From Acidimicrobiales bacterium (lineage in GTDB: Bacteria; Actinomycetota; Acidimicrobiia; Acidimicrobiales; Aldehydirespiratoraceae), in NCBI GenBank assembly GCA_963422745.1, contig OY730477.1, positions 2,232,880 through 2,296,879 of the forward strand: 64,000 nucleotides of DNA, written 5' to 3'. The position numbers and the translations under genes are program-made. Positions within the stretch are counted from its first letter, which is position 1. The number at the start of each line of letters is the position of its first letter. The notes beneath the pieces are model-generated. The model was not told where the DNA came from. It saw nothing but the letters and a program-made list of their open reading frames with translations, and ran no database searches. Positions 59,034 to 59,669 of the stretch are shown piece by piece.

Positions 59034-59101
59034 ATGCCAGTTCGTAACACTACATGCTGCTAGCAGGAGTTCTAGTAGTCGCTCTGCTCGGTTCTGGATG
59101 T
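59034..59101 (+). pseudogene. 5' fragment of a fifth B-array lipoprotein gene (signal peptide/lipobox only, frameshifted)
   Basis: atgccagttcgtaacactacatgctgctagcaggagttctagtagtcgctctgctcggttctggatgt matches the C2 5' end apart from a 1-nt deletion. Homology stops right after the lipobox Cys codon. Confidence 0.75.
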
Positions 59102-59250
59102 AAGCTCGCTCGGCAGCAGAACCGGGTTGTGACCATCACTGGCGACGGTGCGTTTCTCTTCAGCGATGAGGCTGGCGTTCCAGTTTGTCGGAGGCCCGCT
59201 ATACATACCCCGAGCACGTCCCTGCTCAAAGCGTCTTCAATGTGCACTAG
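59102..59250 (+). pseudogene. decayed copy of the 3' end of the TPP-enzyme gene (compare 54064..54460), with an internal deletion
   Basis: ..tcgctcggcagcagaaccgggttgtgaccatcactggcgacggtgcgtttctcttcagcg.. matches 54064..54125. ..ggcccgctatacataccccgagc...ctcaaagcgtcttcaatgtgcactagtt matches 54405..54461. About 220-250 bp in between is missing. Confidence 0.8.
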
Positions 59251-59420
59251 TTAGTTGTCTACACATACCCGGGGAGCGCGTCCTCGCTCAAGCTGCACGA
59301 CTGTGGGGCTGGCACCGCAGTCGTGACCATCAGCGGCGAACTGCCAAAGAATGCAAACTTGATAGCTGGCCGCGGTGAACGGCCCTGAGAATTTCAGCTG
59401 GCTGTGGTGAGGGCCTGTCC
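59247..59420. other. decayed copy of the spacer and last codons of the OYE gene found at 63481..63650 (an empty-site-like copy)
   Basis: cactagttagttgtctacacataccc...ctcgctcaagctg...cagtcgtgaccatcagcggcgaactgccaaagaatgcaaactt...gagaatttcagctggctgtggtgagggcc parallels 63481..63650. Confidence 0.75.
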
Positions 59421-59568
59421 TCAGGCGTGAAGTTCGTTGGACTCCATGTCAGAGTGGGCGCTTCGTATTATTGACCTATTGGTTGTTTGTGCGGTACGTG
59501 CCGGTCGGCTCGTTGTCTGACAGCGATCAAATGCGCCCGGGTAGGTCCGCCACGGCCGCGGCGATCTT
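59421..59568 (+). pseudogene. decayed copy of the 3' end of the acyltransferase-3 gene (compare 7480..7627)
   Basis: It translates SGVKFVGLHVRVGASYY*PIG.., versus SGVKFVGLNVTVGAFLLLTYRLFVRYTPIG.. in ORF 6047..7627. It is followed by ttccgtagttg, as at 7651. Confidence 0.8.
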
Positions 59569-59589
59569 ATTTCCGTAGTTGTCGGAAGA

Positions 59590-59669
59590 GTTGTCAGCCG
59601 GTGGGGTCCGGGTTTTATTGACACTGGCCTTCTCGTTCCCCTATGGTGAATGGCTAAGGGGGAATTGGC
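59590..59669 (+). promoter_or_regulatory. leader/promoter region upstream of the PLA2-lectin gene (copy C)
   Basis: gccggtggggtccgggttttattgacactgg... shares its first part with copies A/B and contains TTGACA. AAGGGGGAA is a likely SD before ATG 59670. Confidence 0.35.

Follow-up and report, generated by a model that had tools for sequence, protein, structure and literature searches.

We examined a 64-kb window (the whole stretch of DNA analyzed; positions 2,232,880 to 2,296,879 of contig OY730477.1, assembly GCA_963422745.1) from an Acidimicrobiales bacterium and, within it, a mosaic of ∼660 bases at 59008-59669 that separates two clusters of toxin and lipoprotein genes. Such clusters are present at two loci: at locus A, a toxin gene and three lipoprotein genes follow an acyltransferase gene (AT3), while at the second locus, islands B and C lie between the gene for a TPP-dependent enzyme (TPP) and a convergent OYE-family gene (OYE), with the mosaic between the two islands (Table 1). 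The host DNA has a G+C content of 60-62%, and that of the two islands is lower (47-53%). Apart from toxin genes, lipoprotein genes, and antisense shadows of these, the islands (7628-12115 and 54462-63480) contain no open reading frames (ORFs). Neither island has a recombinase gene, and genes for an integrase, a transposase, or a relaxase are likewise missing from the islands and the DNA beside them; we found no terminal inverted repeats, and the 64-kb window has no tRNA gene. The closest relatives are Acidimicrobiales metagenome-assembled genomes, and further toxin loci (P0004 and P0005) are present on the same 3.33-Mb chromosome.

Table 1. Genes, islands, mosaic fragments, and parental sequences in the 64-kb window
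Feature	Position	Strand	Remarks
AT3 (Acyl_transf_3 + ankyrin gene)	6047-7627	+	locus A; intact; precedes toxin A
Parent of AT3'	7476-7627	+	3' end of intact AT3
Toxin A body ORF	7737-9131		locus A, after AT3
Lipoprotein gene A1	9124-9822		locus A
B/C-type toxin 3'-end remnant	about 9837-10060	+	224 bp; directly upstream of lipoprotein A2
Lipoprotein gene A2	10053-10817		locus A
Lipoprotein gene A3	10995-11708		locus A
TPP-dependent enzyme gene (TPP)	52599-54413	+	start of second locus
Intact parent	54058-54464	+	TPP 3' end, 48 nt of downstream DNA, site X
Island B	54532-58967	+	toxin B (54532-55878) and lipoprotein genes B1-B4
lipoB5'	59008-59096	+	frameshifted lipoprotein 5' end: ribosome-binding region, ATG 59034, signal peptide with lipobox
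TPP'	59097-59202	+	TPP 3' coding end in two blocks (about 54058-54123 and 54381-54413)
TPP downstream noncoding DNA	59203-59252	+	= 54414-54461, 82%; small hairpin and CACTAGTT
sp' (spacer copy)	59253-59392	.	= 63489-63619 (array C-OYE spacer), 76-77% identity
OYE'	59393-59418	-	OYE stop codon and last 8 codons, = 63620-63644, 81%
AT3'	59419-59568	+	last 50 AT3 codons, = 7476-7627, 78-79%; 1-nt deletion, stop codon lost
Toxin C leader	59569-59669	+	homologous to leaders of A (7628-7725) and B (54462-54531)
Island C	59670-63486	+	toxin C (59670-61022), lipoprotein genes C1-C3, truncated C4'
C4' (truncated lipoprotein)	63346-63486	+	right end of array C
Intact parent	63479-63644	.	site X, spacer, OYE 3' end; right outer island joint
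OYE-family gene (OYE)	stop codon at 63620; extends past window edge	-	convergent to TPP; 139-bp spacer separates it from array C

The five fragments of the mosaic

A blastn search of 58900-59800 against the window, followed by base-level alignments, resolved the mosaic into five decayed fragments that lie end to end and stem from four host genes. Each fragment matched its proposed source far above chance (E values of 1e-14 to 1e-38), and all of the pieces stand in + strand order with their parental orientation kept. The original prediction, made from the sequence alone, had named five decayed pieces in this arrangement, and all five were recovered to within a few bases.

The leftmost fragment, lipoB5', is closest to the 5' end of lipoprotein gene C2 (59010-59122 with 61755-61868; 87% identity, E 7e-32), although the true homology ends at 59096 with the bases GGATGT, such that the gene is cut ∼63 nt after its start; a 1-nt deletion creates an in-frame TAG at codon 10. 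TPP', which probably starts at 59097, consists of two blocks, namely (i) block a (59106-59165 = 54064-54123; 86.7%, E 4e-15) and (ii) block b, which runs on into the TPP-downstream DNA (59170-59252 = 54381-54461; 80.7%, E 1e-15). The blocks meet at 59166-59169, where 257 bp of TPP (54124-54380) are missing, and TAT stands in place of the stop codon TAG; the translation reads LARQQNRVVTITGDGAFLFSD vs IARPQNRVVAIAGDGAFLFSG in TPP. The spacer copy and OYE' form a single match (59245-59418 = 63481-63644; 77.6%, E 1e-34), in which OYE' reads ..QALTTAS* vs QLAFNTAS* in OYE. The spacer copy has a hairpin at 59296-59325 with an 11-bp stem, the left arm of which is degenerate in the right-hand spacer copy. 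AT3' belongs to a longer match (59419-59722 = 7476-7778; 72%, E 2e-38) that comprises AT3', the leader, and the start of the toxin gene.

As a control, we searched 53 host stretches of 636 bp in the same manner. Only eight had any nonself match at E < 1e-10, seven of these being local tandem repeats or pairs separated by at most ∼2 kb and the remaining one a nearby tandem repeat family; none of the 53 showed several distant sources end to end.

The fragments give no indication of a present function, and the mosaic does not appear to be a functional element. A structured RNA or a terminator was rejected, as the mosaic had no Rfam match at E up to 1, its hairpin energies were unexceptional (z scores of -0.6 to -1.9 on the + strand and ∼0 on the - strand), and it contained a single, weak terminator-like match. 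We also rejected the spacer as an older remnant of TPP, since the 20-nt likeness between 59126-59145 and 59320-59339 is at chance level (149 of 500 shuffles scored equally). A 66-codon chimeric ORF at 59054-59254, in which a lipobox signal peptide (MLLAGVLVVALLGSGC) is fused to TPP', is probably debris, though it could be translated. The sole likely current function lies at the right end, which would serve as the promoter and leader of toxin C; this leader has a C-specific insert of ∼33 nt (59625-59657), a ribosome-binding site ahead of ATG 59670, and a sigma-70-like match (TTGACA-18-TATGGT, 59618-59647), which is a consensus match only.

Site X, the joints, and the source cassette

The window has only three copies of CACTAGTT. 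The left copy, at 54454, marks the boundary between TPP-downstream DNA and the left end of toxin cassette B, and the right copy, at 63481, that between the truncated lipoprotein C4' and the spacer; across the copy in the mosaic, at 59245, TPP-downstream DNA continues directly into the spacer with no island. The sequence forms part of a 13-mer, TCCACTAGTTGAT (site X), which contains the palindrome ACTAGT, is identical at its outer copies (54452-54464 and 63479-63491), is degenerate at its middle copy (59243-59255), and flanks only the B+C island. Because TPP', the spacer copy, and OYE' are contiguous across CACTAGTT, the mosaic holds an uninterrupted version of the site that the island splits between 54454 and 63481; the proposal that the second to fourth pieces form an empty-site TPP-OYE junction was thus borne out. 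In this empty-site copy, X is flanked by two direct repeats of 12-35 nt (CTAYACATACCC ... GAGC-loop-GCTCAA) at 59199-59232 and 59259-59292, the former present also at 54410-54443. Each of them has a 5-6 bp hairpin, and the right-hand spacer copy (63495-63515) is without the left arm.

A search for a real empty TPP-OYE site, which drew on 43 TPP loci and 38 metagenome OYE loci, found none; in all of the relatives retrieved, TPP and OYE have other neighbors. In the closest TPP relative, L001 (OY730440.1; 95% nucleotide identity over 11.8 kb), homology stops 13 nt past the TPP stop codon, and TPP is followed (11832-18588) by genes for a GmrSD_N/RAMA/Mrr_N protein of 934 residues and an AAA_15/OLD-TOPRIM protein of 773 residues, with no OYE, toxin, or AT3 gene within 10 kb. 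An OYE protein search gave no match on the contig of the L001 genome among the matches listed. None of the 38 OYE loci has a TPP, toxin, lipoprotein, or AT3 gene nearby, and more distant TPP relatives have unrelated neighbors. The sequence 3' of TPP thus varies between genomes, and the site is a hot spot for conflict-related islands of variable content. We infer the ancestral TPP-OYE adjacency from evidence internal to the window.

At the left outer joint (..TCCACTAGT[TGAT]TCGGTAGTTG..), the tetramer TGAT at 54461-64 is common to the target and the cassette, and TGATTCGGTAGTTG is identical at 54461 and at 7625, in the stop-codon region of AT3 at locus A. At the right outer joint (..GCCACCAT[CCACTA]GTTGATCC..), the hexamer CCACTA at 63480-85 is common to X and to the matching place of lipoprotein gene C2 (61911). 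Among the inner joints, that between lipoB5' and TPP' (59096/97) has a GCTCGG-like sequence in both parents, and that between OYE' and AT3' (59416-59419) has at most two recognizable shared bases; the later divergence of 13-23% blurs the exact extents of microhomology and the number of steps. The OYE' (= 63644)/AT3' (= 7476) joint is head to tail, the distal end being followed by the proximal start on the same strand, and the lipoprotein/TPP' (= about 54058) joint has the same polarity. The joints therefore display both the polarity and the short microhomology (0-10 nt) of a duplication or template-switch scar. Moreover, both islands lie between direct duplications of target DNA, which for B comprise ∼400 bp of the TPP 3' end and for C 165 bp of X-spacer-OYE', with an intact copy of the host gene sitting outside each insertion. 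The joints look like the products of illegitimate recombination, and nothing in the sequence suggests an active mobile cassette.

To trace the parentage of AT3', we compared it at 114 sites with the AT3 gene of the window and its nearest orthologue (L084; 87% nucleotide identity), with L085 as the outgroup. At 19 sites, AT3' carries the state of the window AT3 where L084 differs, and at three it carries that of L084 where the window differs; by the outgroup, seven of the 19 states shared by AT3' and AT3 are shared-derived. Of the private changes, 18 fall to AT3' and three to the window AT3. The differences of AT3' from AT3 are spread evenly over the codon positions (13/7/11). AT3' is thus a dead, neutrally decayed copy of the AT3 3' end of this very lineage and postdates the split from L084. 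The earlier claim that toxin copy C came with a left flank of the locus-A type is supported by this result.

The A-like N-region of toxin C, to which the earlier claim also pointed, is poor evidence for it: toxin C is B-like overall (89% nucleotide identity and dS of 0.22 to B vs 71% and 0.94 to A), and only a stretch of ∼90 nt (59832-59920) is marginally closer to A. With a dS of 0.94, present-day toxin A was rejected as the donor of copy C. Just ahead of lipoprotein A2, however, locus A retains the decayed 3' end of a B/C-type toxin, with 86% nucleotide identity to the 3' end of toxin B and 80% to that of toxin C (74% amino acid identity to toxin B residues 373-448). A second decayed toxin 3' end at 10850-10999, directly before A3, shows 51% amino acid identity to toxin A residues 422-464. 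With these two remnants, locus A is a stack of one full module and two "orphan" modules. Further, the lipoproteins of arrays B and C are all of the A2 type (72-76% nucleotide identity) and not of the A1 or A3 type (∼54%). Together with the toxin remnant, this points to a moved cassette that would have comprised the AT3 3' end, a B/C-type toxin, and an A2-type lipoprotein, formerly at locus A. The B/C-type toxin there was later displaced by toxin A and A1, and the donor cassette type is extinct at that locus. The originally proposed movement of a cassette with its host flank holds for the locus-A AT3 flank of copy C, but the source was not present-day toxin A, and the joints look illegitimate.

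In L084 (ENA ERZ21742368 contig_50, 11534-11765), ∼75 nt coding for a toxin-type signal peptide (..RWLVWFVV..) directly follow the AT3 stop codon, and the AT3-toxin linkage is therefore ancestral. This remnant is fused to DNA corresponding to window positions 12116-12258, past island A, from where the sequence jumps to window position 24285. L084 thus lacks both island A and the next 12 kb of the window (12259-24284), where the P450 gene lies, and simple illegitimate deletions therefore remove toxin islands as well.

Insertion, import, and other explanations

For the mosaic, we favor the reading that two copy-and-paste insertions of a toxin-lipoprotein cassette left this scar, through errors of host replication or repair and not through a mobile-element enzyme, and we put this at about an even chance. 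The alignments establish the fragments with their parents and arrangement, the joints, and the parentage of AT3'; from these we infer which event came first, that templates were switched, and that every piece arose within the genome. At the start, TPP and OYE would have been convergent neighbors with ∼190 bp between them, including site X (..TCCACTAGTTGAT..), and at locus A, AT3 would have preceded a B/C-type toxin and an A2-type lipoprotein. In the first event, rightward synthesis would have (i) passed through TPP, X, and the spacer, 26 nt into the 3' end of OYE; (ii) switched to AT3, 152 nt ahead of its stop codon, and copied AT3', the toxin, and one or more lipoproteins; and (iii) returned via CCACTA to site X, 165 bp behind the exit point, to give spacer'-OYE'/AT3'-toxin C-array C-lipoC4'/X-spacer-OYE. 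In the second event, synthesis would have (i) exited X through TGAT and continued from exactly the TGAT in the AT3 stop region of a cassette, either at locus A or at copy C; (ii) proceeded through the toxin and lipoproteins until ∼63 nt past the start of a lipoprotein gene; and (iii) returned via the GCTCGG-like match to TPP, ∼400 bp behind the exit, to give TPP-X/toxin B-array B-lipoB5'/TPP'-X-spacer'.... The redundant inner fragments (TPP', spacer', OYE', AT3', and lipoB5') would then have decayed, with the intact copies outside. Two insertions of this "leave, copy, return upstream" kind reproduce the present order exactly. The same joints might also have arisen by tandem duplication of 7476-63644 and of the stretch from TPP to the array, each trimmed by a later deletion.

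The private divergence of the dead pieces is similar, at 16% for AT3' (18 of 114 sites) and 14% for TPP' (15 of 107); the two spacer copies differ by 23%, about half of which falls to each copy, the toxin remnant at locus A differs from toxin B by 14%, and dS(B,C)/2 is 0.11. These values fit one period of rearrangement.

Several observations weigh against two insertions from within the genome. The differences of TPP' fall largely at third codon positions (11 of 15; P = 0.002 vs uniform), a codon-position bias that differs from that of AT3' (Fisher test, P = 0.027); mutational bias was rejected as the source of this excess, since the G+C contents at third and first codon positions of TPP are equal (0.68). 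TPP' also has AAGCTC, GGC, and GAC as in distant orthologues, at places where the window and L001 share derived states. Two independent breakpoints would have to fall within the 13 bp of X, the chance of which we estimate at ∼0.1-0.15 for a target of ∼190 bp. Arrays B and C are not collinear, the only clean pairing being B3-C3 (95%), and TPP lies beside OYE in none of the relatives retrieved. Finally, the mosaic is present in one assembly, an independent short-read contig being identical to 50125-54580 only, and exact-protein look-ups of toxin C and two mosaic ORFs gave no independent copies.

An origin within the lineage holds for AT3' but is doubtful for TPP', whose outgroup-like states and third-position bias indicate that it branched off before the divergence of the window from L001 and then evolved for some time under selection. 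Three readings of this signal remain: (i) the events predate the window-L001 split, and L001 later lost the island; (ii) the resident TPP was later replaced by an L001-like allele via homologous recombination; or (iii) a related strain was the source of the TPP'-X-spacer'-OYE' block and, with it, of AT3' and toxin C. The last of these extends to an account of the whole mosaic as an import between strains with hitch-hiking flanks, by homology-facilitated illegitimate recombination, which we consider possible but rather unlikely. Under this account, [TPP 3' end-X-spacer-OYE'/AT3'-toxin C-part of array C] from a related strain would have joined a resident TPP-X/toxin B-array-lipo'/X-spacer-OYE, with its right end anchored by homologous recombination in the lipoprotein array and its left end joined illegitimately at lipoB5'/TPP'; the outer 13-bp repeat of X would stem from one earlier insertion, which accounts for both outer joints lying in the same site. 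The third-position differences of TPP' and its branching outside the window-L001 pair are what a functional gene of a diverged lineage would show; moreover, the hairpin stems 3' of TPP differ by a compensatory pair (GAGCC..GGCTC vs GAGCA..TGCTC), the spacer hairpin is intact in the mosaic copy, and the mechanism has also been proposed for the immunity-gene arrays of the Vibrio cholerae type VI secretion system (T6SS) (PMC5361080). Yet AT3' is clearly of the resident lineage and decayed neutrally, so that the donor would have to be a close relative, and no donor-like genome was found among the relatives retrieved. The import also needs three events vs two in situ, it leaves the similar private divergence of all pieces unexplained, and ordinary homologous recombination that later exchanged the resident TPP allele would yield a signal like that of TPP'.

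Another conceivable agent is a site-specific mobile cassette, that is, a toxin-lipoprotein unit that targets X, with TCCACTAGTTGAT as its att site or target-site duplication and the fragments as traces of imprecise excision or integration. The 13-bp direct repeat at both outer ends with a third copy inside, the restriction of CACTAGTT to these places in 64 kb, and the palindrome ACTAGT between two hairpin-bearing direct repeats (12-35 nt) would suit such a unit. We nevertheless hold it to be very improbable, given the lack of integrase, transposase, and relaxase genes in or beside the islands, of tRNA genes in the window, and of terminal inverted repeats; in addition, X is missing from the surroundings of the copies in locus A and in two other genomes (L045 and L086), which are unrelated to one another, the inner joints fall in TPP and in OYE, away from X, and the joints at X use different microhomologies (TGAT and CCACTA), which fits illegitimate joining. 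It is scarcely credible that a long-read metagenome assembler strung strain variants into a false B-mosaic-C order. The window does come from a metagenome-assembled chromosome in which a single assembly spans the mosaic, and the short-read contig ends at 54580, inside the repeated toxin 5' end; mis-joins, however, do not create fragments that have diverged from their parents by 13-23%, lack 257 bp, and carry frameshifts or have lost stop codons. The joints lie mid-gene with 0-6 nt shared, whereas assemblers join at long overlaps, and toxins B and C differ at 11% of their sites with a dN/dS of 0.43, as real paralogues do.

Known systems, the toxin family, and what the scar records

Orphan immunity arrays that arise by effector displacement have been described for the T6SS effector-immunity modules of V. 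cholerae (Kirchberger et al. 2017, PMC5361080), and Rhs C-terminal displacement and the orphan modules of contact-dependent inhibition (CDI) are cited there as related cases. Like the T6SS arrays, the present islands consist of a toxin followed by tandem putative immunity genes, have no integrase, and are explained by illegitimate joining, whether or not a homologous anchor takes part; at locus A, the downstream genes A2 and A3 lie behind decayed toxin 3' ends, as in T6SS, Rhs, and CDI orphan modules. In contrast to the T6SS arrays, the mosaic at 59008-59568 has no toxin remnant and holds three unrelated housekeeping 3' ends and an intact copy of the target site. Furthermore, the toxin here is Sec-secreted with a lectin domain, unlike T6SS, Rhs, and CDI effectors, and arrays B and C mostly contain one lipoprotein type multiplied, not different immunity types as in orphan immunity arrays.

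Fork stalling and template switching and microhomology-mediated break-induced replication (FoSTeS/MMBIR) are microhomology-mediated template-switch models. An established precedent for joints with microhomology and template switching comes from amplification of the Escherichia coli lac region (Slack et al. 2006, PMC1428787). The present joints resemble these in being head to tail, in connecting loci that lie tens of kilobases apart on the same strand, and in sharing 0-6 nt of microhomology. As at template-switch joints, short segments of different loci lie end to end, with no dedicated enzyme needed. The E. coli cases were caught happening, under selection, whereas the mosaic is old, fixed, and 13-23% diverged.

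In the homology-facilitated illegitimate recombination of transformable bacteria (de Vries & Wackernagel 2002, Prudhomme et al. 2002, and Meier & Wackernagel 2003, as cited in PMC5361080; also PMC3240628), one side has a homologous anchor, donor flank is carried in, and the other end is joined at a short GC-rich microhomology; here, unlike in those cases, AT3' is of the recipient's own lineage. Islands at gene 3' ends (attL/attR) likewise have a directly repeated host 3' end and an intact functional copy, but in place of a short att core, the present islands are flanked by repeats of 165-400 bp that consist of ordinary coding and spacer DNA; an integrase is lacking, and the insertions did not target tRNA or tmRNA genes.

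The toxins comprise a signal peptide, a cysteine-rich N-part, and a C-terminal ricin-type β-trefoil; the N-part contains the motif C-K-A-H-D-H-C-F-D, which is invariant in 10 homologues. The C-terminus matches the Ricin-B lectin family PF14200 above its cut-off (39.1 vs 25.6 bits), ThreeFoil 3pg0 in a profile comparison (E 3e-8), and β-trefoils in Foldseek (E 2e-6). The motif, for which secreted phospholipase A2 (PLA2) has the His-Asp catalytic motif C-x-x-H-D-x-C as its counterpart, gives a weak hint that the N-part is like prokaryotic PLA2, as the match to PF09056 is below the cut-off (14.4 vs 29.4 bits; E 0.016-0.059); three helices are predicted at 205-266, and the structural model is poor, with a predicted local distance difference test score (pLDDT) of 58. 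Both families are very rare: among 5.8 billion proteins we found 10 toxin homologues, and among 1.84 billion we found 15 representatives of the lipoprotein. In L045 and L086, the toxin is likewise followed by two lipoprotein homologues, such that a toxin with at least two lipoproteins is found in three genomes overall; the lipoproteins are putative immunity genes to the toxin. The first lipoprotein gene starts inside the last toxin codons in another frame (55859-55878 and 61009-61022; 11979-11992 in L045), which suggests translational coupling of the two genes.

Other features of the clusters and of the host part of the window were as follows. The signal peptide of toxin A (ATG 7726, MKKRWSAWAVVV..; 7726-7800) is out of frame with the body ORF, which reflects either a frameshift, and hence a possible pseudogene, or an assembly indel error. 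Toxins A and B (∼71% identical overall) share a tract (8088-8148 and 54886-54946; the YSTDADAAAYLDMDPDHKNDRAVCPPPG region) that is 100% identical over 60 alignment columns, which suggests gene conversion between the loci or extreme constraint. Lipoprotein gene B4 has a frameshift (58220-58257) just past the usual MPTLR.. start, and its long ORF resumes at GTG 58257 with the lipobox kept. The right edge of island A (11729-11863) carries a lipoprotein 3'-end fragment with 74% identity to the lipoprotein genes of L045. Beyond it, the first 55 codons of an NAD_binding_2 dehydrogenase (12005-12172, - strand; PF03446, E 3e-6) are severed by island A, and the start of this gene abuts the stop codon of the P450 gene (12169-13485). 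In the host part, we noted a tandem family with a period of ∼267 bp in a low-G+C stretch (23341-24146), a 121-bp pair with 97.5% identity and ∼1.8 kb between its copies (26586-26705 and 28361-28481), a repeat pair of 81% identity that lies 2 kb apart (20423-20532 and 22408-22517), and local tandem repeats at 32615-33039 and 13808-13926.

The mosaic is a tidy case of an already known kind of scar, with no new mechanism, and the rare toxin-lipoprotein family is the more novel object. A bolder combined view would be that (i) a very rare, previously undescribed pair of a Sec-secreted PLA2-like/lectin toxin and a lipoprotein immunity protein in sponge-associated Acidimicrobiales (ii) multiplies within and between genomes without a recombinase, by repeated template switches of the above kind at the structure-prone site X between its two hairpin repeats, which drag host gene ends along, and that (iii) the mosaic is the first preserved preinsertion site inside such an island; taken as a whole, we regard this as improbable.

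For annotators, the small ORFs of the mosaic, including the lipobox-TPP chimera at 59054-59254, are a warning that such ORFs can be debris, and the fragments provide landmarks for the comparison of strains within the species. As an unusually complete, base-level record of the duplication of a toxin cluster in an uncultivated symbiont, the scar preserves the parent flank, the novel joints, and the untouched target site, along with the trace of a donor cassette type that has since been overwritten at its original locus A. It would thereby indicate that toxin clusters can spread by ordinary errors of replication and repair, without mobile-element genes.

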